Shown: one piece after another, positions 144 to 64,000 of the stretch
Position numbering within the stretch: position 1 is the first letter of the stretch
Layout: every line of letters begins with the position of its first letter
From: Eledone cirrhosa
Taxonomy: Eukaryota
Direction of reading: 5' to 3'
Assembly (NCBI GenBank): GCA_964016885.1
Contig: OZ024742.1
Span: 161,572,001 to 161,636,000 of the forward strand
Length of the DNA stretch: 64,000 bases
Program-made: the position numbers and the translations under genes
The notes under the pieces: model-generated
Seen by the model: the letters and a program-made list of their open reading frames with translations, nothing else
Database searches by the model: none
Told to the model about the DNA's origin: nothing

Positions 144-144
144 G

Positions 145-7334: not shown

Positions 7335-7381
<47 letters not shown>

Positions 7382-7818: not shown

Positions 7819-7851
<33 letters not shown>

Positions 7852-8217: not shown

Positions 8218-8284
<67 letters not shown>

Positions 8285-8295
8285 GTATATATATG

Positions 8296-8326
<31 letters not shown>

Positions 8327-8605: not shown

Positions 8606-8699
8606 AAATAATACAGATACAATATAGACACAAACACATATATATAGTTTATCAAAGTTCTTTCGTTGCACATTTGCAACATCGTCAGTGGTGTTATTG
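8606..8699 (-). ncRNA. Satellite cassette copy 4 with hammerhead-like core
   Basis: Core identical to 552-647. Confidence 0.7.
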
Positions 8700-8863
8700 T
8701 ATATATATATATATATTTATATATATATGTATATATATATGTATATATATATGTATATATATATATGTATATATATGTGTATATATATATGTATATATAT
8801 GCATATATATATATATGTATATATATATGTATAAATATATATATATATATGTATATATATATG

Positions 8864-8894
<31 letters not shown>

Positions 8895-8913
8895 GTATAT
8901 ATATAGAGATATG

Positions 8914-8960
<47 letters not shown>

Positions 8961-8985
8961 GTATATATATGTATATATATATATG

Positions 8986-9036
<51 letters not shown>

Positions 9037-9381
9037 GTATATATATATATGTATATATATATATGTATCTATATATGTATATATATATGTATGTATATAT
9101 ATATGTATATATATATGTATATATATGTATATATGTATATATATATGTATATATATATGTATATGTATATATATATGTATATATATATATGTATATATAT
9201 ATGTATATATATATATGTATAATATATATATATATGTGTATATATATGTATATATATATGTATATATATATGTATATATATTTATATATATATGTATAAA
9301 TATCTATTATATCTATCTATATATATATATATGTATATATATGTATATTATATATATAATGTATATATATGTATATATATG

Positions 9382-9414
<33 letters not shown>

Positions 9415-9421
9415 GTATATG

Positions 9422-9452
<31 letters not shown>

Positions 9453-9466
9453 GTATATATAACATG

Positions 9467-9555
<89 letters not shown>

Positions 9556-9992
9556 ATATATATATGCATATATATATGTATGTATATATATATGTATATA
9601 TATATGCATATATATGCATATATATATGTATATGTGTATATATATGTATATATATGTATATATATATGTATATGTATATATATATATCTATATATATGTA
9701 TATATATGTATATATATATGTATATATATGTATATATATATGTATATATATATATATGTATATATATATGTATATATATATATGTATATATATATATATG
9801 TATATATATATGTATATATATATGTATATATATATATGTATATATATGTATATATATATGTATATATATATATATGTATATATATATGTATATATATATA
9901 TATATGTGTATATATAGATGTATATATATATATGTATATATATATGTATATATGTATATATATATGTATATATATATATGTATATATATATC

Positions 9993-10035
<43 letters not shown>

Positions 10036-10670
10036 GTATATATATATGTATATATATATGTATATATATATGTATATATATATGTATATATATATGTATA
10101 TATATATGTATATGTATATGTATATATATATGTATATATATATATGTATATATATATGTATATATATATATATGTATATATATATGTATATGAATATATA
10201 TATGTATATATATATGTATATATATATATAAGTCATATATTTATATATATATATCTATATATATATGTATATATATATGTATATGTATATATATATATGT
10301 ATATATATATGTATATATATATATCTATATATATATATATATGTATATATATATGTATATATATATATGTGTATATATATATATGTATATATATATGTAT
10401 ATGTATATATATATATATGTATATATATATGTATAGATATGTATATATATGTATATATATATATGTATATATATATATGTATATATATATGTATAGATAT
10501 GTATATATATATATGTATATATATATATATGTATATATATATATGTATATATAAATGTATATATATATGTATATATATATGTATATATATATATGTATAT
10601 ATATATGTATATATATATATATATATGTATATATATGTATATATATATATGTATATATTATATATATATG

Positions 10671-10703
<33 letters not shown>

Positions 10704-11041
10704 GTATATATATGTATATATATATATATGTATATATATATATGTATATGTATATATATATATGTATATATATATGTATATATATGTTTATATATATGTA
10801 TATATGTATATGTATATATATATGTATATATATGTATATGTATATATATATATGTATATATATGTATATATATGTATATATATATATGTATATATATGTA
10901 TATATATGTATATATATATGTATATATATGTATATAAATATATGTATATATATATGTATATATATGTATATATATATGTATATATATTATATATATATAT
11001 ATATGTATATATATATGTATATATATTATATATATATATAT

Positions 11042-11134
11042 AAATAATACAGATACAATATAGACACAACACATATATATAGTTTATCAAAGTTCTTTCG
11101 TTGCACATTTGCAACATCGTCAGTGGTGTTATTG
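11042..11134 (-). ncRNA. Satellite cassette copy 5 with hammerhead-like core
   Basis: Core identical; 1-nt deletion outside the core. Confidence 0.7.
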
Positions 11135-11276
11135 TATATATATATATATATTTATATATATATGTATATATATATGTATATATATATATGTATATATATG
11201 TGTATATATATATGTATATATATGCATATATATATATATGTATATATATATGTATAAATATATATATATGTATATA

Positions 11277-11323
<47 letters not shown>

Positions 11324-11342
11324 GTATATATATAGAGATATG

Positions 11343-11389
<47 letters not shown>

Positions 11390-11414
11390 GTATATATATG
11401 TATATATATATATG

Positions 11415-11463
<49 letters not shown>

Positions 11464-11630
11464 GTATATATATATATGTATATATATATATGTATCTATA
11501 TATGTATATATATATGTATGTATATATATATGTATATATATATGTATATATATGTATATATGTATATATATATGTATATATATATGTATATGTATATATA
11601 TATGTATATATATATATGTATATATATATG

Positions 11631-11661
<31 letters not shown>

Positions 11662-11801
11662 GTGTATATATATGTATATATATATGTATATATATATGTA
11701 TATATATTTATATATATATGTATAAATATCTATTATATCTATCTATATATATATATATGTATATATATGTATATATATATGTATATATATGTATATATAT
11801 G

Positions 11802-11834
<33 letters not shown>

Positions 11835-11841
11835 GTATATG

Positions 11842-11874
<33 letters not shown>

Positions 11875-11887
11875 GTATATATACATG

Positions 11888-11978
<91 letters not shown>

Positions 11979-12195
11979 ATATATATATGCATATATATAT
12001 GTATGTATATATATATGTATATATATATGCATATATATGCATATATATATGTATATGTGTATATATATGTATATATATGTATATATATATGTATATGTAT
12101 ATATATATATCTATATATATGTATATATATGTATATATATATATGTATATATATGTATATATATATGTATATATATATATATGTATATATATATG

Positions 12196-12226
<31 letters not shown>

Positions 12227-12434
12227 GTATATATATATGTATATATATATGTATATATATATATGTATATATATGTATATATATATGTATATATATATAT
12301 ATATGTATATATATATGTATATATATATATATATGTGTATATATAGATGTATATATATATATGTATATATATATGTATATATGTATATATATATGTATAT
12401 ATATATATGTATATATATATCTATATATATATAC

Positions 12435-12465
<31 letters not shown>

Positions 12466-12609
12466 GTATATATATATGTATATATATATGTATATATATA
12501 TGTATATATATATATATGTATATATACGTTATTCCGGGTTGAATCAGAGGTAACCACAGTAAGTTAGGTACTCAATACATAGCAGAGTATAACAGTTTTA
12601 ATATAGATG

Positions 12610-14149: not shown

Positions 14150-16290
<2,141 letters not shown>

Positions 16291-16740
16291 AATGTGTCTG
16301 TTGATTTGGCATATTGTTGATTAGTTTAAGAGAAGTTCGAAGATAATAGTAAGATATGCACTCAGTATTTTGAATCTGTCTGCAGAATTCCCTAGACCTT
16401 TGTCACTTAGTAGAACCTTAATGACTTTAGCTTTTAAAGAATCTCCCTTTCCTTTAATTCTATCGAGCATGAATGACCCCCCACTGATTTTATAGACATC
16501 TGCTAGCTTAAGAGAAACTTATTGACAAGGAATGGTATGCCATCCGGAACCTGTTTATAGAATTCTGTCTGCCTTTGTTACTCTAAAAACATAAATAAAT
16601 ATAAATTAACTATAGCTTTGTAGAATTAGCTTTTAATGAATTCCCTTTTCTATCAACCAATGACCTGCACCCATCCCACTCCCCACCCTCTCCTACCACT
16701 TGTAGAGACCTATAAATACCATATTTATTTTTTGATACCC

Positions 16741-16791
16741 AGATTCCTGATGATTTCTAATGAATGAAACAGTTCTAGTCCTGTAGAATCT
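16741..16791 (+). ncRNA. Type I hammerhead ribozyme in PLE pLTR
   Basis: AGAUUC-CUGAUGA-U-UUC(UAAU)GAA-U-GAAA-CAG(UUCUAGUC)CUG-UA-GAAUCU: 6-bp stem I, 4-bp stem III, GUA cleavage triplet. Confidence 0.88.
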
Positions 16792-16807
16792 CATCTATAT
16801 TAAAACT

Positions 16808-17002
16808 ATATATGTATATATATATGTATCTATATATGCATGTATATATGTATGTATATATATATGTATATATATATGTATATATATATGTATATATATA
16901 TGTATATATATATGTATATATATATGTATATATATATATATGTATATATATATGTATATGAATATATATATGTATATATATATGTATATATATATATATA
17001 AG

Positions 17003-17033
<31 letters not shown>

Positions 17034-17292
17034 GTATATATATATGTATATGTATATATATATATGTATATATATATGTATATATATATATCTATATATA
17101 TATATATATGTATATATATATGTATATATATATATGTGTATATATATATATGTATATATATATGTATATGTATATATATATATGTATATATATATGTATA
17201 TATATATATATGTATATATATATGTATAGATATGTATATATATGTATATATATATATGTATATATATATATGTATATATATATATGTATATA

Positions 17293-17332
<40 letters not shown>
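16808..17332. repeat. Resumption of the higher-order TA satellite
   Basis: Same ordered landmarks (gtatctatatatgcatg, gaat, aagt, tcta, tagat). Confidence 0.85.
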
Positions 17333-17336
<4 letters not shown>

Positions 17337-18411
17337 TTTACGTATCGAGAAAGAGAAAAAAAGGGGCGATAGGTGATACATATAGTTATTTGCCAAGTAG
17401 CGTATGCCAAAGGTGCTCGATACTAGTGCCGGCAGTATTAAATATTCGAAGTGTTAATATTTAGTGGGCTAGCGAGTTAGCAGAGCGTAAGCACGTGGGA
17501 AAGTAAAAAATCGGAGAATAGACCGTTAAAACATGTTTATTTAAAATATCACCTACGTATGTTTCGCCCAGTTGGGCTTCTCAAGGGCATAAATAATCAC
17601 AAGTGTTCCCTATATTGCTCGGAAAGAGTTTTTGGGGTTAAATCTACATCAAGGTTCATTGCTCGCAAAAATATCTTGTTTTGATTTTGCAGCAGGTCAA
17701 GGGAGATAACTCTGGCCGGTGTTAGGGCAGTCTTTCCCGGACAATTTTCTTTTTTTTTTTTTTTTTTTTTTTGCCGCATCCGTTTGTCTGAGGCTGGGTC
17801 TGGTATGCAAGGATTGTTTTCTGGGTGTTATTTTGCAGCGCCTGCCCGCCGGGGTGTTAAGACTTGTTGCAGGGAGATCCAGTGTACTATTTCACTCTTC
17901 ATCCTTAACCCATCTGAAGAAGGATATTTTTAAGCGATGTCTACAACTTATCGCTGTTTCAGCTCTGCTGTTGATGAGCTCGTGGGGTGCAGTTATGATG
18001 TGGTAGAGCTCCATGAGGCAAAGATCGCATTTCCTCTTGAAGTTGTACGGTGCAGCCCTGCCGACAATCTCCCATGCGTGGAGAAGCTGATGTTTAAGTC
18101 CTTTAGTGATGTGATGTAGTCCGCGAGCGAAGTGGAGTGCCTTAGTTTTCTATTTGTGAAAGAGTGGAGATGTGTTCGAAACCTAATTTTGAACGGGCCG
18201 GAGGTGGCCCCTATATAATGTTTAACGCTATTGTGGCTAGTAATAGTGCATCTATATATAACCCTATCAGTCAAGCAGTATCCTCTAAGGGGGCAGCGTC
18301 CTCTGTCGCGGCAGTTGCAATTTCTGTCGCGGTTCCGTCTATTTCCCACGGTAAGGCTATCATTGTTGCTGCCTACGTTGTTACCTACGCTACCGCAGCT
18401 GTCGTTAGCAC
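17333..18411 (-). mobile_element. PLE 3' fragment (GIY-YIG + 3' UTR with HHR variant)
   Basis: ORF 17993-18349: [35 protein letters not shown]. Confidence 0.88.
17548..17590 (-). ncRNA. Minimal hammerhead, U3-A8 variant
   Basis: UUGAGAA-GCCC(AACU)GGGC-GAAAC(AUAC)GUA-GG. Confidence 0.65.
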
Positions 18412-19593
<1,182 letters not shown>

Positions 19594-19735
19594 GTAAGAT
19601 CAAAATACTTGAGTGTGTTAGAGTTAAATACACTCGTCGTATTAGAGAAATGACAGTATAAGGTATAGCTCAATGTAATCCAACAGACCCGAAAAATTAT
19701 AAAAACGAAGCTCTCAATACATCAAAAGTCTTTAT

Positions 19736-48265: not shown

Positions 48266-48959
48266 TATATATATATATATATATAATCCTCATTTTATGT
48301 CCACTTTTCCCTGCTTGTAAGGGTGGGACAGGTCCTCTTCAGCATAGCATCTCTCAACTCATCACAGTCCTTTGTCATCTCCTGTGAGCTTCAGTAATCT
48401 GAGGTCAGTTCTCACCACCTCTGCCCATGTTTTCTGTGGTCTTCCTCCATTGCATCTTTCTTCCACTGGGATTACTTGGCACTTCTTCACCTAGCGGTCA
48501 TCATCCATGCACATCACATGGCCATACCAACGTAGTCTTCTCTCCTGCAGACTACAGCTTATTCCTCTTATACATAAAACTTTCAGAGGAGTGCATTCCA
48601 TTACAGAAAAGATGGGATAATTTCATAAAAATTTGTTTTAAAAATTCAAATAATTTTTTTTAATGTTTATAGGATCTTTTTATTTTATTTTTGAAATGTA
48701 ATCAATATAAATTAAACTATTGGATTCAAGTATCAATTATTTTGGCATGGGCAAGGTTTTAACAGTTAACACCCACACACACACATTCTATGGTAACAGC
48801 CGCAGTGTAACTTTACCTCAAAAAGCTAACTGAACAATCTGAAGCAAGACACCAAGAATAGGGTAAAATGTCTGTACTATACCCATCCAGTCACTCTTAT
48901 TGCAACAACTCCAATTTTATCTCTCCTACTCTAAAAAGAAAAAATATGATCATCCTTAA

Positions 48960-49184
48960 CCCTTTTGTTACTATATCTTTGAAGAAATACACATTTTGAA
49001 AATAATGAACAATTTGGAGGAATTTAGTAATATAGCTTGACATTTTCATTATTTATTAGCTGATGTTTGAAACATTACTTAACAAAAGTTTCTTACATAA
49101 AACTATGATGGAAGTTGTTAATTTATACATAAACACTTTAAAACAAAGTTTTGTATTTTTAAACCAGAGGCGGTATCAAAAGGG
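48960..49184. mobile_element. piggyBac-like MITE
   Basis: TTAA-CCCTTTTGTTAC ... GTATCAAAAGGG-TCAA (TIR and decayed TTAA TSD). Confidence 0.5.
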
Positions 49185-49436
49185 TCAACTAAGATGAACA
49201 TACAAAACAAATACAAAGAATCACTTTGTTGTGTGTGTTTGTGTGTGAGTTTTTTGGGGGTTTTTTTTAATATAGATCTCTTCTTTCTTCATGGCAGCTT
49301 CTGGTTACTTTCAGGAAGTAAAAATAGCAGCCCCAACAGACCCAGTGGAAGAGGTTTGAAAAAAATATATAAGAAAATTATCCTCTAACCACTATCAGTG
49401 ACAATTTTTCAAAGACCCAATCCATTCGTGTGAAAT

Positions 49437-49826
49437 TCAATCAGGTTCATCATCAATAACTGTGTTGCTCTCAGAAGAAGAGAGGGGAGTGGCAGGAAGG
49501 ATTTGGCAATCTTCTGATACAGCCAGAACAATATCACCGCTGCTGTTGGTGTTGTTAGTAGAGGTGGCGCATTCAACAGGCAGGTCAACAGTGGTGGAAA
49601 CAGTTGCAGGCACTTCAACAATAACAGTGGCATCATCTGGAGAAGTTTCCAGAACAGGACGACAACAATGATGGGCAGATATGATGACTTCCTCGAATAG
49701 ATCTAATGTAATAATCCCTTCGGAGTCTAACTGCTCGAGAGCCTGGTTGCAGAACTTATGTACAGAACACATCAGATCTCCAACAGTCCAACATTTTGCT
49801 TGAACAACTCTGACCACATCAGGAAA
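49437..49826 (-). CDS. PARG-like: PARG-family gene, terminal coding exon
   Basis: Acceptor tttttcag, phase 0; VVRVVQAKCWTVGDL resembles the PARG C-terminal TVGDL motif; TGA stop at 49437-49439. Confidence 0.82.
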   Translation of the reverse strand, partial: FPDVVRVVQAKCWTVGDLMCSVHKFCNQALEQLDSEGIITLDLFEEVIISAHHCCRPVLETSPDDATVIVEVPATVSTTVDLPVECATSTNNTNSSGDIVLAVSEDCQILPATPLSSSESNTVIDDEPD

Positions 49827-50459
49827 CTGAAAAACAAAGAGAAAGACTTTTAAGAAATCAAATACCACAATGTTATCATCATTATAATTTAATGTTGTCA
49901 TCATTTAACATCATTATCATCACTTAACATCCATTCTGTCATGCTGGCATGGGTTGGACTGATGGTAATGATGATTCAACTGGTTTGGGATGTGAATATG
50001 CATACACAAACATACACATATATATGACAGGGCTTCCATATACATTCGATCTACCAAATTCACTCACAAGGTGTTGATTAATGCATGACTATGGCCAGAG
50101 ACAATTACCAAAGGTGCCACACACTGGAACCAATCCTGAAATTATATGCTTAAGAAGTTAACTTCTAAACCACACAGCTATACCTACATCTACTCAGGGA
50201 TAAAAAAAACAATATATATAATAATTGTTTCTATTTTTGGCACAAAGCCAGTAATTACTCCAGTGCATTACTGGTGCTTTATTTTATCGACCCCGTAAGG
50301 ATGAAAGGCAAAGTTAACCTCAGTGGGATTTGAACTCAGACCGTAAAGGGGCGTAACACTATGCTGCAATGCATGGCGTCTCACCCTCTACCGATACTGC
50401 CAATCCATCGCCCTTATATATATATATATATATAATAATGAAAATATATATACAAATGA

Positions 50460-50760
50460 AAATTATTGTGTACAGTGCTCAGGAGCACTACAACTCATCA
50501 AAGGTGCTTGTATAGTACATAGAATAATGTACAAATGTCAGGAAAGTGAACAGTGTATGAGTCATGATATACACACAGATATATGTGTGCATGTGTATGA
50601 AAGGGGAATATCAGGTGTAGTGTTGACGAATTTTGGGAAGCATGGAAGTTTTGAAGGATGCAGTGTGCCAACAGCTAACAATTGATGCTGGTAGTTTGTT
50701 CCATGTTTAACTTGCTTGAAACCACTGACTATTTGATGAAAAACCATTTGTTTTAACATT
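50460..50760 (-). mobile_element. CR1-like LINE 3' end
   Basis: WNKLP-like remnant and 3' UTR ending before an (ATT/TA)-rich tail. Confidence 0.5.
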
Positions 50761-51442
50761 TTCATGTTTAAATTTAAACCATTATTTATAACTTTTTGTA
50801 AGAACCTTTATGTTATGTTCCAAAAACTAACTTAACAAAAATGTTAGTTATATTACTTGATAGCACCAAATCTTTTATCATTTAAAAAATTAATTGACAA
50901 TCATAGGCAGTATATTTCATTAGAAATGTGGTAACTAAAGCATAAAGTTATGCTCCAAACACCATCTTAATAATGTAAAAGTTATATGACTAAATTCTTG
51001 CAAATTCTTCATTCTTTTCAAAATTATTTGAACATTGTAGATGGTGTCTTCATTATAATTTGTTAAGCAAAGAGTAAAAGAGAAGGGAAGTAACCACAGG
51101 CTTTTCAAGTCCTCAGGACTTTTGGGATTTCTTGTTGATGTTAATATGATTAATGTTCAGTTTGATATCTTTTACATTAGTATTTGAGGGTAAATAAACA
51201 AATTAGCATAGTCGCTAGCACAGTAGATGAAATGCTTTGCTGCATTCCTTCCAGCTCTCAATGCTTTGAATTCTAATCCTGCTAAAGTCAACTTTGCCTT
51301 TCATCCTTCCAAATTTGATAAAAAAAGTACCAATCCCATACTGGAGTCAATTCTTCCTCTATACCACTTTCTCACTTCCTCTCTATCACTCACTCACTCT
51401 CTCTCTCTCTCCTTCCTTCTCTAGAAGAAATCAGCTGTCAGA

Positions 51443-51634
51443 TTTATACCATTTTTCAGCCAAAGGTAGAAATTTTCCAATGGAAAGTAGAACATGTTTT
51501 GGTTTTAAAATCAACACGACCACCTCCACCTGGTTATGGTTTTGGTAATTTTAAAACCAAAAAGTGTTCTTTACATTGGAAAAGTTTTACTTTTCAGCAG
51601 AAAATTTCTAGTTTTCACTGAAAAACGGTATAAA
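51443..51634. repeat. Imperfect fold-back (MITE-like) in intron
   Basis: tttataccatttttcag..tagaaatttt vs aaaatttctag..ctgaaaaacggtataaa; ttttggttttaaaat vs attttaaaaccaaaa. Confidence 0.6.
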
Positions 51635-52214
51635 ATGCCCAAGACATGCCATATATCACAATGGTGCCCCTATTACTCCAATAGAAGTTACTGGTCCATA
51701 CATACAATTGAAAGTGAGCAGTGAGGCACAATGGCTCTAATATTAACATGTTGAACTGCTCACTTTAGTTTAACCCATTGTGACCAGATTTGTAACAATA
51801 ATTTGGAGAAATTTATTAAAATTATTATTTCATTATTATGATCATATTTGTAAAAGTTGGAATATTTAATTTTATATAAAATATACCTTTAAAATGGGTG
51901 TCTTTTTTTTCATTGAATCATGTGTTTTTGGCTGGGTTAGTATAAAAATAGGTTAACCCCATTGAAACAAAATGATTGATAAAATAAGAAACAAATTTGA
52001 GAAAATAAGTATGGAGGGTTAATTATGATTGACTGAACCCCTTTAAAAAACTGTAGCAGCATGACTTGAGTTTAATGATTGAAATCATCATCACAATTTA
52101 ATGTTCATTGTCCATACTTGTTGAAATTAGGTCTGTCATGTTTTGAGGCTAATCAGATCATTTGACCATGTCTTGCTCATATGCTCTGTTTTGGGGTTCT
52201 TTTTATAGCTGAAT

Positions 52215-52580
52215 GCCCTTCCTAATGTTAACTACCTTACAATTAGACTGGGTGCTTCTGTCCTGGCACCAGCACACCCACCTTACAGAGTAGACTGGGT
52301 GCCTTTTTTGTCATGTCACCAGCAGGACCACTATACAGAATGGACTGGGCACTTTTTTTTTGTCATGGTATAAGCATGGCTACCTTATATAGCGAACTGG
52401 GTACTTTATTGTTGAGATACCAGCATGACCACCTTAGAGTGGACTGAATGCATTTTTGTAGTGACACCGATATGACCACCTTACAGGGTTGACTGTGTTT
52501 TTTTTGTTGTGGAACCAACACAACCACCTTAAGGTGTAGACTGGGTGTTTTTTGTCATGGCACCAGCACAACCATCTTAA
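52215..52580. repeat. Decayed ~48-50-bp minisatellite
   Basis: Repeated caccagca..ccaccttacag..gactgggtg..ttttgtcatg. Confidence 0.7.
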
Positions 52581-52805
52581 AGGCCAGTAAAATAATAAAA
52601 TAATAACAGAATGTCTCCTGGTGACCACTGGCCACTGGTCTCTGTCCTGAGACATTTTACCCATTGCTGTCATTGACAGCATTTAGTTGTTTTAACAGTT
52701 GTTCTAGCGATGAGTTTTCTCATTTTTATATGTATTGAAATACACTCTCACTTCGTCTTGATCAGAGACAACATTGTTTTTAAAAAAAAAAAACATTTTT
52801 CTTAC

Positions 52806-52949
52806 CCGGACAAGTTTTTCACTTTGTTTTGTGTAACATATAAAAACTGGCGTTTTGATGTATGAGGAAACAATCCACTGGAGTAAAACTTCAAGTTGCG
52901 GATTTGATCCAGGGATTCCACATGAACTGACTAATGCTCGACAATCACT
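52806..52949 (-). CDS. PARG-like: PARG-family gene, 144-nt exon
   Basis: ttttcag / gtaag boundaries, phase 0/0; RALVSSCGIPGSNPQLEVLLQWIVSS..PVFICYT corresponds to PARG ATGNWGCG..GGD..LK.LIQ..AA. Confidence 0.85.
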
Positions 52950-53279
52950 CTGAAAATGAAGAACAAAGACAGGCCATATTAACAAAAGCCATTCTTTAAT
53001 TCAAACAGATGTATGTCTTATGTCTATAAAGAAAACTATGGTGAAGACGTTAAAGATCTAAGCAGATATTTTTCATAAGACTTCTAATTTAGACTCAAGG
53101 CCAACAAAATTTGAGGAGTGTATCGCTAGAATAAACAAAGTGATTCCCAAGTATTTAATTGGTAAATATATCATCATCATCATTTTGGCTTGCTCCCACA
53201 TTCAATCCCACCATGGGGCCGACCAATACACTGTAAGTAAATTGTGGGCAGAAACGGTAAGGAGGCTTTTATATATATC

Positions 53280-54084
53280 ATCATCATCATCATCTTCGTT
53301 TAACGTCCATTTTCCACGTTAGCATGGGTTAGACAGGAGTTGTCCCACTTGAGGCAAGGCTGGTCGGGTGACCGTATCTCGCTCATATAGGACTATCTGG
53401 CAGGTTTTCTACGGCTGGATGCCCTTCCTAACAACAACCACATTTCACATTTACAGTGTGGAACTAGGAACTTTTTACCGTGTTACCTACACGGCCACAT
53501 TACAGCGTGGATAGTGTGTGTTTTTTATCATGACACGTACACGATCTCGATCTCATTTTCTCGTGCTGTTGGTGGGAGTAGGGGGATAGGGTAGGGGTAG
53601 TGGATTTGGGTGTATATTTGGTTAAGAGATGCCTACTGACTGTAGATTTCGCTTTGTACATAGGCGAGGCGGGTCTTCTGTATTACTGCGTAGCGCCAAA
53701 GATCTCGGTCCAGAGACATTGTCTTAGAGAGATGTGTGTGAGGTCAGAATTTCTCAGATCGTCCCAGGTTTTTCTGGGTCTACCTACTCCGTAACTACCA
53801 CCAATTTTGATCGCCCTGCACTTTTTTATGCAGCTGTCGTCTTTCATGCGCATCACGTGACCATACCAACGTAGCCTTCTCTCAAGTAAACAGCATCTGA
53901 TCCCTCTTATTCCTAATTTCTCAGTTCGTTTATGCTTTGCCGTTCACGTATATTACTATTACACATCCAACGGAGCATGCATGCTTCGTTCCTTTCCAGT
54001 CTACGCAGGTCCTCTGCACGTAATGCCCATGTCTCACTGCCATGTAGTATTGCTGTTCGTATACAGGCATCATACAATCTGCCT
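53280..54084 (-). mobile_element. RTE LINE 3' fragment, inverted relative to 47490-48265
   Basis: Reverse complement of 47490-48265 with scattered differences. Confidence 0.88.
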
Positions 54085-54297
54085 TATATATATATATATA
54101 TATATATTTATACTTGGGGAGGGTCATATTTGTGTAATAATATTGCCAGAATTAATAACAGAACACACTCACTGTTTGGTTGGTTTCGCTTCTGTGTCTT
54201 TTATATCGGTTAATATAATTTATTCGGTCCTCAATGTTACCATTGACTGACCAACGGTCAAAAATACAGATATAATATAGACACAAACACATATATA

Positions 54298-54350
54298 TAG
54301 TCTAACAAAGTTCTTTTGTTGCACATCTGCAACATCGTCAGTAGTGCTAT
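54298..54350 (-). ncRNA. Hammerhead-like core with GAAA->AAAA change (predicted inactive)
   Basis: CUGACGA-U-GUUGCA(GAUG)UGCAAC-AAAA; C>T at 54317 on the plus strand. Confidence 0.6.
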
Positions 54351-54619
54351 TATATTTCCTTCTGTTGTATTGTATGCCTACGCCATCTTTATTTAGTGTT
54401 TTTTATTTATTTATTTTTATTTATTTTTTGTTTTTTGTCTTCTCTGCGCATGCGTCTGCATGTGTGTATAGTGTGTGTTCGTGTTTTGGTGACTGTGTAT
54501 TGGTTATTGTATTCTATCTTAGTTTACTTGTGTGTGTTTATATGTGTTTGTTGTTATTGTGCTTGTGTATGTATTTATTTATTTATACTTCTCTTAGGTC
54601 AGTATTGTTTGTTTGGGTG

Positions 54620-56990
54620 TTGTTGTTATTCCATTCATTTTTTTCTGTTTAGCCTTGGCCTTCTAAGTTCTATTTCGCTGGCCTCTCTGATTTGCCTATC
54701 TGCTGGGTCATTTCTATGTTGTCTATGTTACCGTCATGTTGTTGTCTGGCATGTTCGTATAGTACTGAACCGTTTTTTCATCCTTTTAGTTCCCCCCAGT
54801 GTTGGTCTATCCTTTCACCTATGCTACGAGCTGTCTTGCCTATGTATGTTGTTGTCATGTTTCTGCAAGTACCCTCGGTACATCTTACGCTATAGACTAC
54901 GTTTCTAGTTTTACAGTTTATCCAGGGGTTTACTTTACATATAATATATTTCCTATTAGTACAGTGGGTTTTCTTAAAAAGGTAGGTTTTGCTGATCAGG
55001 GATTTTATGGTGGTTCCTGGCTTTTCTACCACCTTAATCTTTAAGTGGGTCTTTCTCAGGGCCTTTCTACACTGGTTAGCTAATTTCCCTCCAGGGGTAG
55101 TGTCCACAAACATGACACTCTGGTATCTCTGGTTGTCGTACCATGAGATGGCTTTCCCTATCTTATGTCTAGTCCTATCTAAGCTATTCCATGATTTGTT
55201 CCTGTATAATGGGCAAATTCCTTTCATGTCCAGTTCTATGAGGGTCTTATACTTCTCTGTGGCTCCTTCGTATACTCTGATTCTGTCTCTTTGGTTGTAG
55301 CCAGAGAACTGCATGCGGTTGATGAAGTGTTGGATGTGTCTTTCCATTTCTGTTGGGTGGCACATGCGGGACACGTTCTTCATCACTCGTACCAAGTCTG
55401 CGATCAGAATATTAAACTTAGCACTACTGGACATTGCTGAGTTTTTGAGTATCAGGTATTTGGAGGCCATGGGTTTAGCGTAGTGTGAGTGGAGAATTTG
55501 GGCTCTCTCGTCTATAGTGTTAATCCAGAGTTCCGTGTCTAATACAGGTAGTCTATTGTTAGGGTGTTTGGAAGGGAAGTCGATAGTTACAGTTATACTC
55601 TGGTGTATGGAATTAGCTATCTGTTGGATGCTTTCCATTGTGCTATGTTCTAAATCAAACTTGTTAGTGCTCTCTAGTGGGGATGTTCTTATTACTATAT
55701 TGATGTCGTCTACGTAACGAGAGTACATGATGAGGTCTATGGAGCTTTCATTAAGGAGATCTTTGAGTCTCCGTTCTCAGCATCCCATAAAAAGGTTGGT
55801 AATGTCACCAGCTACGCTGACGCCAATGGTTGCTCCCTCATTTTGGGTATAGATCTTCTCGTTGAATTTGAATATGTGGCCCTTTAGGGTAGTTTTGATA
55901 CTAGCCCCTATTGCATGTGCGACCATTTTTCTTACCTGATCATTGTTTTGGGGGTTCCGTATAGCTTTGGTCCACCCAATCCACCTTCCCATAGGAGTCT
56001 TTTTTGCCATTGAGGTTATGGTGGGGGGGGGGGGGGTCTACCTCTTATGGGTCTACTGGGGCAGAAAGGTCTAAGGTCATGGTTGTCTAGGTAGTCAGTG
56101 TCGTAGGAGGCCCAGTTCGTCTGTGTCGACGTCGCAGAACTCCACCTCACTCTCAATGATCATCTCCACACATTTTTCTACAGCAAAATCAATGTTAATG
56201 GATGGGTACAGTGATACCACATCCATACTGCCTATTATGCAGTTGGATAGGTTTTTGTTTTTTGTTGCACTCACCGATTCTGCTGAGGAGGTCCTCTGTA
56301 CTGTCACATACATCTGGGGACATCTTGATTATGGGGCGTATAACCATTGAAAGTAGGAGATCCTGTAGTTGCTAGCTATATTTGCTCCGCATACAGGTCT
56401 TGTTGGTGGTCCTGTTGTCGGGTCGTCGACTGTCTTATGGTATTTGCGATGCCCATACAAAGGTGGTATGCCATTGTTAGACGCCTGGAAGTTGTTGGCA
56501 GTGCATCTGCTTGGCTTTAGGATGTCGGTCCACATCATCATGTGAGCGTTGAGGATTTTCTCTCTCCCATCATGTATTTGCTGTGCAATTTCACTCGTGT
56601 TGGTGATGTGGGGTTGCATAGCCTTGATGTAGTTCGGCATGCTGTCTATTGACATCCTACCAGACTTATCCGTGGGTAGACATACTACCTCACCATCCCT
56701 TGTGCGCTGCTTGAGGCTAACCAAGCCTTCTACAGGTTTCTTCCCAAGTTGTTGGACTTCTGGTCTGCTTTGTCTCTTAGTATACCGGTCTACTATTTGT
56801 CTAATCTTATTTCTAGCTATGGTGAACTGTGCCTCTGTCTCGTCATCTATTTGTTGTGGTATACAAATCCTTTTATTAAAGGGTAACCTCGTAGGATAGA
56901 TATTACCCATCTTATATGTTTTGTCAGCTGGATTGAAGAATAGTTTCTCTAAGGGGTTGTCATTATATCTATCGTCATAGTTGTGTGTGT
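54620..56990 (-). pseudogene. PLE RT + GIY-YIG, multiply frameshifted
   Basis: ORF pieces 56329-56910, 56095-56313, 55777-56010, 54778-55728 in colinear domain order. Confidence 0.88.
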
Positions 56991-57530
56991 TGCTATTATG
57001 TATGTGTTGCTACCATAAAATCCCTGATCAGCAAAACCTACCCTTTTAAGAAAACCCACTGTACTAATAGGAAATGTATTATATGTAAAGTAAACCCCCG
57101 GATAAACTGTAAAACTAGAAACGTAGTCTATAGCATAAGATGTACAGAGGGTACTTGCAGAAACATGACAACAACATACATAGGCAAGACAGCTCGTAGC
57201 ATAGGTGAAAGGATAGACCAACACTGGGGGTACTAAAAGGATGAAAAAACGGTTCAGTACTATACAAACATGCCAGACAACAACATGACGGTAACATAGA
57301 CAACATAGAAATTAGAATAATATCTAAACATAGAAATGACCCAGCAGATAGGCACATCAGAGAGGCCAGCGAAATAGAACTTAGAAGACCAAGGCTAAAT
57401 AGAAAAAATGAATGGAATAACAACAACACCCAAACAAACAACACTGACCTAAGAGAAGTATAAATAAATAAATAAATAAACAGACTAAATAAAGATGGCG
57501 TAGGCATACAATACAACAGGAGGAAACATA

Positions 57531-57584
57531 ATAGCACCACTGACGATGTTGCAGATGTGCAACGAAAGAACTTTGTTAGACTAT
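57531..57584 (+). ncRNA. Hammerhead-like core, intact, in the inverted pLTR
   Basis: CUGACGA-U-GUUGCA(GAUG)UGCAAC-GAAAGAACUU. Confidence 0.68.
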
Positions 57585-58944
57585 ATATATGTGTTTGTGT
57601 CTATATTATATCTGTATTTTTGACCGTTGGTCAGTCAATGGTAACATTGAAGACCGAATAAATTAAATTAGCCAATATAAAAGACACAGAAGCGAAAAGC
57701 AACCAAACAGTGAGTGTGTTCTGTTATTAATTCTGGCAATATTATTACACAAATATGACCCTCCCCAAGTATAACAATATTTGTTTCGACACACAATTTC
57801 ATATCAAAAACCTCGCAAAACTATATATATATATATATATATTAGAAAGTGAGGTTTTTTTACAAAATGAAAAATAACCGAGGTGTCCTACACGAGTGAA
57901 AGTATAAGGAAAAAGATAAAATCGAAAATGAAACTGGAGTCTTTTTTTTTTAAATATATATTTATTTGGTTCCTTTATATATATATAAAGGGTAGGGTAA
58001 AGACCCCCTTCGTTCATGAATGATCATGGGATTTGCACCTAGAAATTTCCCCTCCGAGGCACAAGTCCGGGCAAGGTTATTTGTGGAAGACCAGCAGTTG
58101 CCCATGTATACCAATCTCCCCTCTCAACGCCACCGATGTTGACCAAGTAAGTGGCACCAGTGACATTGCAACTCATTTCTACAGCTGAATAAACTGGAGC
58201 AACACGAAATAAAGTGTCTTATTCAAGGCCACAACGCATCTGCCGGTCCGAAAGTCAAACTTACAACCTCCCAATTATAAGCCCAATGTTCTAACCACTA
58301 TCACATGAATATGTGATGTTGTCACTCTTCATTTTCTTAATATTGATACTCCATCTGACACCATCTACATAACACCATGTGGCATCCATGACATTGAGTG
58401 CTTCTGCTGGATTACAACATTGTTGGTAAATTGATTATCATAAATTGCCTTATTACTAGAATGTAAATAAATCTATACCAATCCAATGCTACCCACAAAC
58501 TCAAGCAAATGCAAACCATGACCCTACAATTAACTCCACCCACCATAAACAAACCCAACAAGACATAAATTCAAAACATCCTTCAAATCTATACTCCGGC
58601 CTTTTCAGCCAAACAGCAATGAACCTGCTTCAATTACTGATATAGAGGAGGGGTGACAGGCAGCATCAGGTTGCAGCTGTCATATTCCATAATTTCTATA
58701 TTACTCTGCATGTGACTACTATCCCATTACATTCACACATAATCAGTATAACCACTAGAAATATTCCTCGACATAATCTTGTATATATGAGGAGTCATCC
58801 TCATCACCATTTTATGTCCATTTTCCAAGCTAGCATGGGTTCAACAAGTCCTGTTGTGGGCAATGCTAGGTCAGGTGACCATCTCTTGCTCATACAGAAC
58901 AGATTTTGGCTTGCTTTCTACAAATGGATGCCCTTCCTAATGTA

Positions 58945-59450
58945 ATGCCAACCACATTTACAGTGAGTACTAGGGTTTTTTTGTCATTACACCTACACAA
59001 CCACTTCACAGTGAGTACTGGATGCTTTTTGTTGACACCTACACGACCACTTTATAGTGAGTACTGGGTGCTTTTTGTCGTGACACCTACATAACCACTT
59101 TACAGTGAGTACTGAGTGCTTTTTACCATGACACCTACACAACCACTTTACAGTGAATACTGGGTGCTTTTTGTCGTGACACCTACATAACCACTTTACA
59201 GTGAGTACTGAGTGGTTTTTACCATGACAACTACAAAACCACTTTACTGTGTGGACTGGGTGCTTTTTGTCGTGGCACCTACACAACCACTTTACTGTGT
59301 GGACTGGGTGCTTTTTGTTGTGACGCCTACACAACCACTTTACTGTGTGGACTGGGTGCTTTTTGTCGTGACATCTACACAACCACTTTACTGTGTGGAC
59401 TGGGTGCTTTTGTCGTGACATCTACATGACTACTTTATAGTGTGGACTGG
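58945..59450. repeat. 48-bp minisatellite, ~10 copies
   Basis: acacctacacaaccactttacagtgagtactgggtgctttttgtcgtg repeated. Confidence 0.92.
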
Positions 59451-59916
59451 TGTATGAGTGTATAATAGTCAATACAGGTATACTGACACAAAAAAAAAAA
59501 TCCCCCAGTGAAATTGTCTATGTCTCCCATAAACAATACATCCTGCAGCATAGAAGTTTGACAAATATTAGTGGTGTATACTATACTTAGAAAATAAGGT
59601 ATAGGCTGGCATCAGGAAAGATATCCAGCTCGAGAAAACCTGCCTCAAAGGTCTCATATCAACCCATGCCAACACAGAAAAAGCATTGCAAAAATGATGA
59701 GTAGTAGTAGTTGTGGTGGTAATAGTAGTAGTAGCAGCAGCAACAGTGGTGGTAGTAGTAGTGGTGGTGGTGGTGGTAATAGTAGCAGTAGTAGTGATAG
59801 TGATAGCATCATGAGGAGCTTAATTTTTAGTGTTACAAGTAGAAAGGAAAGAGCTAAAGAATTTTTAAAAAAAGGAAATATTAAATAAAAAAATAAAAAA
59901 GATGTTCCCAACTTAC

Positions 59917-62228
59917 TTGGTATATATCTCTACATGAAGATACAGTTAAAATAGCAGACTCTATGATATCTTTGGAAGTGTTTTCATAAAAGTCGTATAA
60001 AGTTGGAGGTGGTGGAATGTTTTGTGGTTCGGAATCAATAGCAGTCATGACAGGAAATTTTCTATGCAAGCATGGCTGACTAAGTTGTGGGAGGTTCAAT
60101 GTTAAGTCTTCGCTATAATCGCTGGTAGGATTTTGCAATGTTAGAATGGCAACATGGATTACATTTTTGGCAATTTCATCAGCAATCATTTCAAGGCATT
60201 GCAAACACATATTGGATTTAAACTGAACATTACATGGAATGACCCCAAAAATATCTACAAAAGATTCGTACATTATTTCCTCTGACACCTGATCAGCAAA
60301 TGTCGACAGATTATCATCACTGTCCAATGACATAGAATGGATTTCACTGAGATCTTTAGATGTTGGGTCATCAGAAATATCAGTTCGAGAGATCACAGAT
60401 TCTTGATGTTGAAAATGTTCCCTAATATCAAAATATAGCAAGGAGTCTGGGGAATCAACACAACTCCTAAGTAACTCATCTTCAAAACTTGCCAATGTAT
60501 TGTCTTTAAATCCACTAAGACTCCCGCCACTGTGAAAACTTTCTTGATGCCAATTATTGCGTAAGTTCATAAAAGATTGACTGGTGGCATCAGTGCGCAT
60601 CAGCTCTTCAGCAAACTGCGAGAGTGTAATGTCACGGAATCCACTCATACTTGGTTCCATTGTTTTATTTTGCTCACTCAAAGAATTTTGCCTTTCAAGT
60701 TCTAAATAGAAATTGGCAAGATCTTCCTGAGGGACGAGTTTATGGCCCACATTAATTCCTCGGCAATTCGTGTCTTCTACAGTAGTCATATTTGGCAAGT
60801 TGGGTACATATTGGTAACGCAGCAGCTGTCGATAATATGGATTAATAAGATAGTTTTCGTGCAGTTCTAGCAAAGCATTTGTAAACAGTTCCTTTGTAAT
60901 AGTCAAGGCATATTTGTCATAATCAGGGAGATATACTCCTTGAGAACTACTTGAGGTATATGCAGCTCTTACACCATGGCATTCAATACTATCAATAAAC
61001 ATGTTAATTTTGTGAGCTGTTTTCAAGCTGCTGTCGAGAATATTTGTACTTAAATCATTGATCCAACATCCAAATAATGGGCTATTACTCATCCAACCAG
61101 ACAATGAAGAAGAGTTGCTCCAAAGTGATTGTCGTCGACTGGAAGAAGCTGAAGAAGGGTTAGTGCAATTGATTATAGCTTTCGCTTCCCAAAATATCTG
61201 ATTAACTAATTTATCAGCAACTGCAGTTAAATCTAGTTCTGTAGTTGAAGGGGAAACTTTATACTCTTTGCTAGTTGATAAAATAGAACTAGCAAGAGTG
61301 GAAATATTTAGACTACTTATTTCATTAAGAGAATCACATAAAATTTCATTGGAGAGGTAATCTGAATAACTGTAGATGGTTTCTGGTATGGCTGGCCGGA
61401 AAATGTTACAGGTTTTGTCAACAGACATGATGCTAGCATCAGAAAGATCTTTTAGTGTGCTTAAATTGCAGAAAAATGAACATTGTTTTTGTTGCTCTTT
61501 GTTTTCACACTGAAAACAAATTTCTTCTGAATCAACTATAGTCAGCTTGATATCTTCAAATAAATGTTCTACATAACCTTGGACAGTGTCTTCAGAGATA
61601 AAAGAGACGTTAGCGTTTCGATCGATGTTTGGTTCAGGGCCAAATTTAATTGGTACAGGCTTGTGTAAATTAGATGGAAGTTGAATATTTTGAAAGTTCT
61701 GCATACCGGTTGTATTGTAAACAATAGCAGCACTCTCTTGGAGTAGGTTTTCGATAAAGTTTGCAGCAAAATCGTGAACATTGTACATGCCAATTTCTTC
61801 ATGAATGGTGCCAGGACGAGTGGTGAGTTCCCGTTTCATGAAAGATTCGTACAATTCTTCAAAATCTGAACTAATGTCAGAGCTGCAACGAGTACTGCAG
61901 CTGCTACGACGAGATGTCAGATCACTCAAGTTTGAACTTCGGCGTCGGAAGTTTGAGATCCAGTCATGATAGTCAACATCCAAGTAATCCATTGATGTTG
62001 CATGGTTAAAGCTAGATGCTAAAATCCCACTGTTGTACAGAGAACAATGTTCTGGTATATACTTTGCTATAGACTTGAATTCTTTATCAAAACGAGGAGC
62101 AACATCATCAGTGCTGTGACCAGTACACTGGGGGTTCAATTCACATAAAGATTCAGTAAGAATTTCCTTTGTTAATCGCTTGGCAAAACTATCAATATCT
62201 TCAACAAATTTCACTTCTTTTCTTTCTC
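59917..62228 (-). CDS. PARG-like: PARG-family gene, giant 2312-nt exon encoding the insertion domain
   Basis: ~770-codon open frame; acceptor ttttttatttgaag (phase 1), donor caa|gtaagt (phase 0); phases match both neighbouring exons. Confidence 0.9.
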
Positions 62229-62980
62229 CTTCAAATAAAAAACGTTTTATTACAATTAACAGAAATCAATACAAATGGAAAATATCAACATTTTCCTTGT
62301 ACCCTTAATGAAATTCTTGGGGAAGATTCAGTGTGACACAGTGTGTGACTAGGCTGGTCCTTTGAATTACAGGTACAACTAACTTTTGCTAGCTGAGCAG
62401 AGAGGAACAACATAAAATAAAGTGTTTTACTCAAGGATACAATGCACCACTGGGAATCAAACTCACAACCTTATGATTATAACTACTTAGCTATGCACCT
62501 TCACTACATACAATATTCACATATTAAAAGTAAATTGATATTATATATGTGAACAATCAACAAAGAAAAACAAAGCAGAATAATACTGTTCAATGATGAT
62601 ATATATTAGTTTAAAGCTTGATATAATAGGAAAATAGTCTTAATGAAAACTTGCCAACCTCTAAAAACCCAAATGAGGAGTACCATGAAAAATAGGGCCC
62701 CAAAACGGGAAGAAATGAGGCAAAATGGGGAGATTTTACATAATGAAAACTATACCCATTTTCACAAGAAGACATCTCTCACCCACCCCAAAGTGGGTAG
62801 GAAATCTCCCTGTTGGACAGGGAGAGTTGGGAGGTCTGCTTAATGTTTTGGACGTTAGTCCTTCTTTGGAAGATAGAATGTAATTAATATAATGTACCCT
62901 TACAGGCATTTCAGAATAATTATTTATTAAGACTGATAAATATCTAAAATTTTATAATAATAACATAAATAAGAACCAAC

Positions 62981-63335
62981 CTTCAACATCGGTTGTTTCA
63001 TTGGCAATGAGGATTTGATCAGCATTATTTTTATTGGGAGGTGTCATACAGCTGGAATCAATGTTGGTTGGAAGATTGGTGTCTTCGATAATTTCAGTAG
63101 TTATAGTCTGTGTCTGGGAACAGACGCACATCTTATTGAAAAAGGAAGCATCACCCTCGGCTATATATGATGTGTAATTATTTAGGGAACATACTGCTGG
63201 CTGAAAGCCAACCAAACATTTATTGAGATCTCGCAACAGGTATCGGTCCATGTATTGCCTTTGCTGATTGTTAAACTTGTACGGAAGAGTATTGATGGCA
63301 CTGAGCATTGTTTCTAGATTACCATCAGATATCCG
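62981..63335 (-). CDS. PARG-like: PARG-family gene, 355-nt exon (upstream exons probably outside the window)
   Basis: Acceptor cttctcctccag, donor gaag|gttgg (phase 1); AINTLPY..QY..YLLRDLNKCLVGF matches PARG AIDAL.F...Q.....RELNKAYCGF. Confidence 0.85.
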
Positions 63336-64000
63336 CTGGAGGAGAAGAAAATAGGCAAACATTTCAATGAAAAACAATAAAATATCATCATCATTATTAT
63401 CATTTAACATGTTTTTCCTACTCACAAAGGCTGAACTGGTCATCACAGACCAAGTTAGTACTGACCTCTGAGACAGGTTGGGGGACTGCTTCTAACTTAC
63501 ATACAATCCTGCAATCTATAGTGTGTAATGGATGTTGTCATGCACCATGTAAATTTTGTAAAATGGTAGTGCTGGTGCCACAATAAAATGCACCCACTAC
63601 ATCCTACAAAATGGTGATTCTGGTGCCTTGATAACATGTACTCAGTACACTCAGTAAAGTAGTTGATGATAGGAAGGGCATCCAAAATTGAACATCTAGT
63701 CTCAGATCATGACAACCCATCCAACTCATGCAAGAGTGGAAAACAGATGGATGACGATGATATAAAATATACAAAAATAACAATATATACAATGTGAAAG
63801 CTGATCTCAAGAAACTAAACTATTTGCAAGAAGATAATTTCTTAAAAACGAAAAATGCTATTTTACTAAATACCTTAAAATTCTTGATTTAAAAAAAAAA
63901 CAAAAAAAAACAGTGTATTTCATTTCAAATATAGGAATGAAAAGATTAAAAATGTGTAGCATTTAAAGTTACTTACAGAAGCCTTATCACAGTAGTTTCC

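Follow-up and report, generated by a model that had tools for sequence, protein, structure and literature searches.

A PARG paralogue of the octopus Eledone cirrhosa with a split macrodomain, a likely type I PKA anchor and counterpart of the AKAP11/SPHKAP family

AKAP11 is a risk gene for bipolar disorder and schizophrenia with an LC3-binding role in autophagy, SPHKAP is active in neurons and in beta cells, and the fibrous sheath of sperm is assembled by AKAP3. These vertebrate proteins, like AKAP4, carry at their C-terminus half of a PARG domain, the C-terminal one; the other half has been reported as lost (PMC11377751). The determinant of RI binding in AKAP helices is described as F/Y-A at positions 1-2 (PMC12083921), and the FFAT motifs of SPHKAP and AKAP11 have been tested (PMC3261905). 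Active PARG enzymes are characterized by a GGG-x6-8-QEE catalytic loop with a preceding Asn (PMC7050489), and a cyclostome gene carrying both PF05028 and PF05716 has been tabulated (PMC11788884). In the literature covered, which included few subscription journals, no publication was found that describes AKAP helices in a split PARG of an invertebrate, and none paired AKAP11 with a macrodomain. Here, we describe an octopus gene which, taken as a whole, we consider likely to be a PARG paralogue that anchors type I PKA multivalently through its helix-bearing insert and that represents the counterpart of AKAP11, SPHKAP, AKAP3 and AKAP4 in an ancestral layout.

The window analyzed (64,000 nt of Eledone cirrhosa contig OZ024742.1) contains the 3' end of a 10-exon gene encoding 1,395 aa on the minus strand. 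Four exons, located at 62981-63335, 59917-62228, 52806-52949 and 49437-49826, have AG/GT ends and splice in phase into a single open frame of 1,066 aa, as the original prediction had stated, and the 3' untranslated part follows at 48667..49436. The start of the gene lies outside the window, six further exons reaching 11.3 kb further right. The nearest of them, which encodes the EE of the catalytic QEE motif, has its 3' end in the window (63977..64000) and extends to 64144 in extended coordinates, and five more exons lie beyond it. Co-splicing is confirmed by a 5,453-nt contig of run X21 (run type not on record), which contains the exons, the QEE exon among them, without introns and with zero mismatches in the listed pieces, and also covers the 3' untranslated part. 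In this contig, the presence of the 144-nt exon is deduced from a gap of 144 nt between record coordinates; it is directly listed on a relative's contig (X10). Of the pieces listed for runs X1 and X19, none falls on the exons, a result that does not bear on expression.

Within the 1,066-aa frame, RDLNKCLVGF (63204-63233) occupies residues 35-44 and CGIPGSNPQL stands at 899, so that 854 residues separate two motifs for which an interval of about 850 aa had been predicted. The corresponding canonical spacer, predicted at only about 15 residues, is approximately 10 residues long in Drosophila and mouse PARG and 15 in a second, canonical PARG with intact motifs encoded in the same genome (contig C12). 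As expected for a split domain, the Pfam PARG_cat_C match (PF05028) is divided: profile positions 112-154 fall on exon 62981..63335, which contains the end of the N-terminal macrodomain half and the start of the insert, and positions 170-203 fall on exon 52806..52949, which encodes the C-terminal half with a degenerate diphosphate loop, CGIPGSN...LQW, at 52875-52922. Most of the insert is encoded by the 2,312-nt exon 59917..62228, while the last coding exon, 49437..49826, supplies the final PARG-fold helices (W-T-V-G-D-L), an acidic tail and the stop. An orthologue with 88% identity is matched by both PF20811 and PF05028. When residues 125-1322 of the O. bimaculoides orthologue are modeled with AlphaFold2, both PARG halves mostly reach pLDDT 75-97 and fold together on human PARG 611-961, with 342 residues aligned, an rmsd of 1.9 Å and a Z of 36.9; the product of the large exon is largely of low confidence and likely disordered. 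The halves are thus predicted to refold into one domain, from which the insert would therefore hang out as a large loop. The gene is a PARG paralogue with a macrodomain interrupted by an 854-residue insert.

The insert contains the repeated amphipathic helices that had been noticed in it; all eight of those quoted are present, although the estimate of about ten was slightly high. They show the feature of type-I-selective AKAPs, an amphipathic helix of 14-18 residues with F/Y-A at positions 1-2. All on the minus strand, helix 1 (FAKRLTKEIL..., 62134..62187), helix 2 (FAANFIENLL..., 61717..61770), helix 5 (YALTITKELF..., 60859..60912) and helix 6 (FADQVSEEIM..., 60247..60300) fit a strict RI-type pattern. 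Helix 3 (YSDYLSNEIL..., 61315..61368) and helix 7 (IADEIAKNVI..., 60133..60186), the latter with F/Y-A in many relatives, fit the relaxed pattern, while helix 4 (VADKLVNQIF..., 61168..61221) is a loose fit that aligns poorly outside cephalopods and helix 8 (59938..59991) is degenerate here and begins with FA or YA in relatives. In total, seven of the eight fit the relaxed pattern and four the strict one, counts that none of 1,000 shuffles reached, with the caveat that the patterns, of which the strict one follows section 5 of PMC12083921, were written after the sequences had been seen and the shuffles are a lenient null. At least two strict matches per protein occur in 23 of 25 family proteins, in contrast to none across 11,885 residues of PARG halves. 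Several helices are retained in the orthologue alignment (helix 2 family-wide, as well as 5 and 6), in agreement with the expectation that they would be conserved.

Proteins with the same split architecture were found in molluscs, nemerteans and annelids as well as in a brachiopod, as anticipated for long PARG-like proteins of other protostomes. In the octopus gene, the C-terminal PARG half is preceded by several candidate R-binding helices, which is the layout described for the vertebrate proteins (PMC11377751, PMC12083921). Two results are new here. First, positions 603-684 of PF05716 (AKAP_110) match 10 of 11 tested C-terminal halves (E 1.4e-5 to 0.26), with a best score of 24.1 bits against a cut-off of 25; all AKAP-type Pfam matches lie below the curated cut-offs, only three of 32 whole family proteins match AKAP_110, and the canonical-PARG control comprised two short exon pieces only. 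Second, FFAT-like motifs occur in most non-cephalopod members. Of 20 non-cephalopod proteins, 15 have an early [DE][FY]x[TS]A motif no more than 70 aa from where the insert begins (for example, DFLTAQE, compared with the tested DFLTASE at 211-217 of SPHKAP), and a second, [DE][FY][FY][DE][SANG][FY], is found in 27 of 45 block-bearing matches, its counterpart being the tested AKAP11 motif EFFDSFD (residues 343-371); both patterns were written after the sequences had been seen. The N-proximal motif is found in none of the four cephalopod proteins, and the octopus copy has neither type; cephalopods have lost these motifs. In non-cephalopods, they would tie the scaffold to VAP proteins of the ER.

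Since the split family keeps both PARG halves, it is likely the invertebrate counterpart of AKAP3, AKAP4, AKAP11 and SPHKAP in the ancestral layout, as far as can be judged from sequence and from published descriptions of the vertebrate proteins. This likely link was missing from the original prediction. An unlikely alternative is convergence, in which the protein does anchor PKA, yet a PARG paralogue of protostomes gained its insert independently of vertebrate AKAP11, SPHKAP, AKAP3 and AKAP4, which took the PARG C-half separately. When the best-conserved block of the insert was used as a profile, it matched 49 proteins, with no deuterostome among those named; general PARG homology could explain the AKAP_110 matches, and short elements such as AKAP helices and FFAT motifs evolve time and again, the independent origins of AKAPs being stressed in PMC12083921. 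However, under convergence the C-terminal half-domain, the FA helices preceding it and, close to where the disordered part begins, two FFAT types would all have to arise twice, and the cyclostome gene has both Pfam domains (PMC11788884). In the PDB, the family profile found PARGs only and no chain of AKAP3, AKAP4, AKAP11 or SPHKAP. PF05716 yielded no candidate in the octopus genome itself, a negative result that carries no weight. The QW and W-x-V-G residues were also considered as a mark of the clade and rejected: Arabidopsis PARG has both and Tetrahymena has QW, so they may be ancestral.

The resemblance to PKA R-binding helices that had been pointed out is borne out, except that the type is RI (FA-motif), and an RII overlay is therefore probably the wrong first test. 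A profile of the eight helices gave nine matches among 177,635 PDB sequences, the sole natural one being the smAKAP peptide 5hvz_C (E 0.54); the other eight, designed armadillo-repeat proteins summing weak pieces, were set aside. Pfam SmAKAP matches seven of 32 family members (best E 1.6e-5, below the curated cut-off). The eight single window helices have no match in a Pfam scan, and the window's own exon pieces match neither SmAKAP nor AKAP_110. An RI D/D exon is present in this genome, together with one D/D exon that we take to be Sp17-like and two that we take to be RII-like, judging from their sequence. These latter exons would suit a reading that we regard as quite unlikely, namely that type II PKA or other D/D proteins of the Sp17/ropporin type are the main partners of the helices, so that the protein is a scaffold of the AKAP3/AKAP4 kind, structural or flagellar, and not an RI signaling hub. 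It is consistent with this reading that eight helices exceed the two or three described for AKAP11 and SPHKAP, that RII_binding_1 matches one of 32 family members and that some AKAP helices bind such proteins (PMC12083921). Nevertheless, the F/Y-A start is the published RI determinant, and the closest solved peptide is that of the RI-specific smAKAP. We conclude that the gene product is likely a multivalent anchor for type I PKA, in which several FA-type helices would dock RI dimerisation/docking (D/D) dimers and cluster the kinase.

The anchored kinase would then phosphorylate the best-conserved block of the insert (61660..61995, minus strand, single copy in the genome). This block contains an RRRSS PKA-consensus site (61933-61947), a serine series, helix 2 and an acidic motif (61837-61857) that is FFAT-like in many relatives and has Leu at position 2 here. 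All three predicted consensus sites, RRRSS, RRSS and RRQS, were found in the insert; R-R/K-x-S/T has four overlapping matches against 0.41 expected, and one of 1,000 shuffles reaches four. The RRRSS site is conserved and its block is better conserved than the helices, which would also fit a protein that is chiefly a regulated PARG enzyme, in which the insert would serve for autoinhibition or targeting as a loop under phospho-control, with the helices folding on each other or on the domain. Helix 8 agrees with this, as in the model it continues straight into the C-terminal PARG half and may pack on it. The pLDDT of the helices is low, however, at about 45-76, and the model does not pack them into a confident bundle.

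The pocket bears on the same question, and also on the predicted recognition of ADP-ribose. The octopus gene reads N..GGH-x7-QEE, keeping QEE and the preceding Asn with GGG changed. Across cephalopods, GGH replaces GGG, GIP replaces the G[A/V][F/Y] loop, and Lys stands at the position of the adenine-stacking Phe, a column presumed to be that of human Phe902. In contrast, 16 of 20 non-cephalopod lophotrochozoan proteins retain GGG-x7-QEE, G[A/V][F/Y] and an aromatic residue for stacking on adenine. Taken separately, GGG-QEE is missed in four of the 20 (two apparently faulty gene models), G[A/V][F/Y] is retained in 18 and the aromatic residue in 19. ADP-ribose recognition is thus doubtful for the octopus copy and plausible for most other lophotrochozoans, where the domain may have remained able to bind ADP-ribose polymers or to cut them; in cephalopods, it likely serves as a structural clasp that is weakened or inactive. 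The signature in 16 of 20 proteins, and QEE even in cephalopods, would favor a protein that is chiefly an enzyme. This is nonetheless very unlikely, as cephalopods, Owenia and the arthropod-like P0061 have kept the insert block although their pockets have decayed, and the genome has a separate canonical PARG. Mis-assembly or a chance chain of exons is ruled out because spliced contigs and orthologues in four phyla were found.

If the preferred reading, a type I PKA anchor in the ancestral AKAP layout, is true, it suggests where a medically prominent family of scaffolds came from and supplies invertebrate proteins for a direct assay of a link between ADP-ribose and cAMP signaling. It would also revise the loss of the N-terminal PARG half stated in PMC11377751, the origin of AKAP220 (AKAP11) and SKIP (SPHKAP) at the vertebrate base (PMC12083921) and the view of the PARG and AKAP_110 pair as cyclostome domain shuffling (PMC11788884). 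A folded N/C clasp in AKAP11, one that would be lost in C-terminal truncations, is a further prediction of this reading. More tentatively, the family may predate the divergence of protostomes and deuterostomes, having started as a PARG enzyme whose macrodomain had taken in a loop for PKA anchoring and ER tethering. The "lost" N-half might then still be N-terminal in vertebrate members, clasping the C-terminus, and many living lophotrochozoans might keep an active enzyme through which the turnover of ADP-ribose is coupled, at the ER, to type I PKA.

Among known systems, canonical PARG (human 4b1g/7kfp, Drosophila 8adj) shares with the octopus gene the helical and macrodomain fold (PF20811 and PF05028), QEE and the preceding Asn, but has a loop of 10-15 aa where the split family has the insert. 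SmAKAP (PDB 5hvz, PF15127), bound to the RI-alpha D/D, resembles the insert helices in its F/Y-A start and hydrophobic positions 5, 6, 9, 10, 13, 14 and 17; it is, however, a small single-helix membrane protein, and the likeness is weak and confined to the helix. The cyclostome "PARG_homolog" (g7740/GeneID:116945024), listed only in the tables of PMC11788884 as a cyclostome-specific product of domain shuffling, combines PF05028 with PF05716. The FFAT types of SPHKAP and AKAP11 (PMC3261905) resemble motifs of the non-cephalopod relatives, in contrast to the octopus copy. Finally, the AKAP110 family (PF05716) is similar in its C-terminal PARG half at the C-terminus and the long preceding region with several FA-type helices, while the split family differs in having a clear N-terminal PARG half, mostly the catalytic signature and up to eight helices.

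The split-PARG gene lies on the minus strand, and the four coding exons on which the original prediction rested (62981-63335, 59917-62228, 52806-52949 and, last, 49437-49826) have AG/GT borders throughout and splice in phase into a joint open frame of 1,066 aa. They represent the 3' part of the gene; six further exons extend up to 11.3 kb past the window, and the complete model comprises 10 exons and 1,395 aa. This model shares 1,242 identical positions over 1,404 alignment columns with Octopus bimaculoides LOC106877645, and for the insert exon by itself identity to that protein is 91%. One transcript spans the exons. An intron-free contig of 5,453 nt from sequence run X21, whose type is not on record, carries two exons from further upstream together with those of 355 nt and 2.3 kb and the final one, with zero mismatches to the gene in the listed pieces and a 144-nt gap in contig coordinates that matches the size of the small exon. 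In a relative's contig (run X10, 5,160 nt), the four exons of the window are all listed, along with five from further upstream.

The surroundings of these exons are rich in repeats. An intron of the gene holds a broken retroelement (54102-57780, minus strand) with several stops and inverted terminal arms of ~900 bp (92-98% complementarity); its reverse-transcriptase-like (YVDD) and GIY-YIG-like motifs presumably mark it as Penelope-like, and a Pfam scan of this interval returned no match. A 48-bp tandem repeat at 58937-59459 has at least eight overlapping copies in register, and related copies occur near 52250-52560. A TA-rich satellite occupies 1-12526 (12.5 kb, period 12-14, GC ~9%), with additional TA arrays at 14252-19596.

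The PARG domain is interrupted as predicted. In a Pfam scan, PARG_cat_C (PF05028) profile positions 49-111 fell on the exon at the window edge, 112-154 on the 355-nt exon and 170-203 on the 144-nt exon. Between the last two lie 854 residues, versus ~10 in Drosophila and mouse PARG and 15 in the canonical PARG of the same genome, a copy with intact motifs on contig C12. Residues 125-1322 of the O. bimaculoides orthologue were modeled with AlphaFold2 from a 32-sequence alignment. Mean pLDDT was 55; both halves were mostly at 75-97 (lowest 10-residue blocks 66-67), and the insert was low except for isolated helices. The halves are predicted to rejoin into one domain, because 342 residues across model positions 1-1193 superpose on human PARG 611-961 in VIA-align (rmsd 1.9, Z 36.9); a Foldseek alignment of the same model, which possibly leans on known PARG structures, covered only ~255 columns.

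Long PARG-like relatives had been expected in other protostomes, and they were found. A first search of 7,500 candidates yielded 8 proteins, a second of 231 candidates yielded 19, and a profile built on the conserved block picked out 49 from 1.84 billion representatives. This block, which comprises the RRRSS site, a serine series, an acidic motif and helix 2, is single copy in the Eledone genome. Organism look-up covered 29 of the 49 block matches plus the protein P0003. Named members are cephalopods, gastropods, bivalves, the brachiopod Lingula, the nemerteans Lineus and Tubulanus, and the annelids Owenia and Lamellibrachia; no deuterostome is among them in these or the other searches. Measured in 24 full-length lophotrochozoan proteins, the insert sits at the same loop and is ~850-1,950 aa long. 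Database labels are 'uncharacterized', 'serine-rich adhesin-like' or PARG. In the relative P0061 (958 aa, E 6e-4) the PARG domain is split too and a related acidic block is present, but there is no strict FA helix and the catalytic loop is degenerate. Because its nearest Atlas clusters, PARG-like proteins of 861-923 aa, are mostly arthropod, the split seems to be older than the protostome radiation. Two further arthropod-like relatives, P0058 and P0059, likewise combine a split, catalytically degenerate PARG with such a block, and P0059 has one FA-like helix downstream of it.

An unexpected Pfam match suggests a link between the family and vertebrate AKAPs. AKAP_110 (PF05716) matched the Lingula (E 5.9e-4), Lamellibrachia and P0061 proteins in their C-terminal PARG half; when C-terminal halves were scanned alone, 10 of 11 matched profile positions 603-684 (E 1.4e-5 to 0.26), the best score being 24.1 bits against a cut-off of 25. 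Two exon pieces of the canonical PARG, a weak control, gave no match. PMC11377751 describes the C-termini of human SPHKAP, AKAP3, AKAP4 and AKAP11 as homologous to the C-terminal PARG half, and says that the N-terminal part of PARG 'appears to have been lost'; the retained half is exactly the piece severed by the insert. PMC11788884 classes a cyclostome gene that has both PF05028 and PF05716 as a domain-shuffling product; this gene would be a natural intermediate.

Motifs in the insert that resemble the ER-targeting FFAT motifs of these AKAPs point in the same direction. PMC3261905 reports tests of DFLTASE (SPHKAP, construct 199-230) and EFFDSFD (AKAP11, construct 343-371) and mentions DFVTA-E as another AKAP11 motif; according to later work, VAP association depends on the FFAT motifs (PMC10460453, PMC12338517, PMC12663438). 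An acid-flanked [DE][FY]x[TS]A is found no more than 70 residues from the start of the insert in 15/20 non-cephalopod proteins, a stricter FFAT-like pattern gave 23 matches against 0.85 expected across 25 inserts, and the acidic end of the block reads [DE][FY][FY][DE][SANG][FY] in 27 of the 45 matches with the block located. Neither motif occurs in the four cephalopod proteins, the window gene included. The ~200 residues preceding SPHKAP motif 211-217 fit, by arithmetic and not alignment, profile 1-154 plus a ~25-residue linker like that of the present family. A further FFAT-like motif (such as DFTDALD or DYTDALD) precedes the last helix by ~20-40 aa in non-cephalopod relatives (9/20 by strict pattern) and in no cephalopod. 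MSP-domain matches are present in the genome; two exon matches on contig C1, with equal scores and 55 kb apart on opposite strands, either arose by recent duplication or reflect a duplicate in the assembly. Two observations count against the vertebrate link: no vertebrate protein is among the named block-profile matches, and plant PARG, too, has QW and W-x-V-G. The first would suit an insert that arose independently of vertebrate AKAPs; beside the shared C-terminal half and the FFAT-like motifs, such convergence is unlikely.

The AKAP-like helices of the original prediction are supported by sequence pattern in the window gene. Type I anchors have F/Y at 1, A at 2 and hydrophobic residues at 5, 6, 9, 10, 13, 14 and 17 (PMC12083921); four helices fit a strict and seven a relaxed form of this pattern, both drawn up after the sequences had been seen, and none of 1,000 shuffles (global or in 25-residue blocks) equaled either count. 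At least two strict matches occur in 23/25 family proteins (exceptions P0087 and P0061), and none in 11,885 residues of their PARG halves or in 42,033 residues of a redundant set of PKA R subunits. Independently of our patterns, a profile of the eight window helices searched against the PDB gave nine matches, of which the smAKAP peptide of 5hvz (E 0.54) was the sole natural sequence, and Pfam SmAKAP matched 7/32 family members below cut-off and none of the window gene's own pieces. Helices 2, 5, 6, 7 and 8 align family-wide, more by pattern than identity (face 0.23, other helix positions 0.14, rest 0.17). That the helices mainly serve other D/D partners is unlikely given the type I fit. The predicted PKA site is nearly family-wide, with RRRSS-N/Q-LSD present in 23/25 proteins, and no other part of the insert is as conserved as the block around it (0.58-0.69). 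The genome encodes an RI D/D domain that closely resembles the solved one of RI-alpha. It also has an RII-like gene with introns on C1 and, on contig C20 (locus L019, 514-1740), an intronless full-length ORF for an RII-like PKA regulatory subunit, a possible retrogene.

ADP-ribose recognition, also predicted, fared differently between lineages. By the defining features given in PMC7050489, GGG-x7-QEE is kept in 16/20, G[A/V][F/Y] in 18/20 and the aromatic adenine-stacking position in 19/20 non-cephalopod lophotrochozoan proteins, two of the non-keepers resembling faulty gene models. The window gene and three other cephalopod proteins have GGH-x7-QEE, GIP and Lys instead, a decay of the pocket. 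The window copy thus probably handles ADP-ribose weakly or not at all, with residual activity conceivable given its QEE and Asn. All three features are lost in Owenia, where the enzyme has thus decayed a second time, independently; the catalytic region of this protein (P0036) is unrecognizable, although its insert block, its helices and the early FFAT-like motif are retained. A chiefly enzymatic role would suit the non-cephalopod signature and is, with these losses, very unlikely. Judged by eye, Supplementary Fig. 6a of PMC11377751 shows the GNWGCGAF loop to be missing from its vertebrate AKAP rows as well.

The PARG and AKAP parts are both already known, and their C-terminal kinship is in print. 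In the literature searched, we found no description of a complete invertebrate PARG domain, mostly with its catalytic signature, that is interrupted by an insert of AKAP type, and the split form is absent from the unusual PARG architectures in the portion of PMC4245714 consulted. We propose that the refolded halves would close the insert into a loop, several of whose helices may bind RI dimers, and that the anchored kinase may phosphorylate RRRSS; non-cephalopod members would attach to ER VAP and may keep PARG activity. Taken together, the family is probably a split PARG paralogue acting as a multivalent type I PKA anchor, an invertebrate counterpart of vertebrate AKAP11, SPHKAP, AKAP3 and AKAP4, which would cluster type I PKA as SPHKAP is reported to do (PMC10460453).
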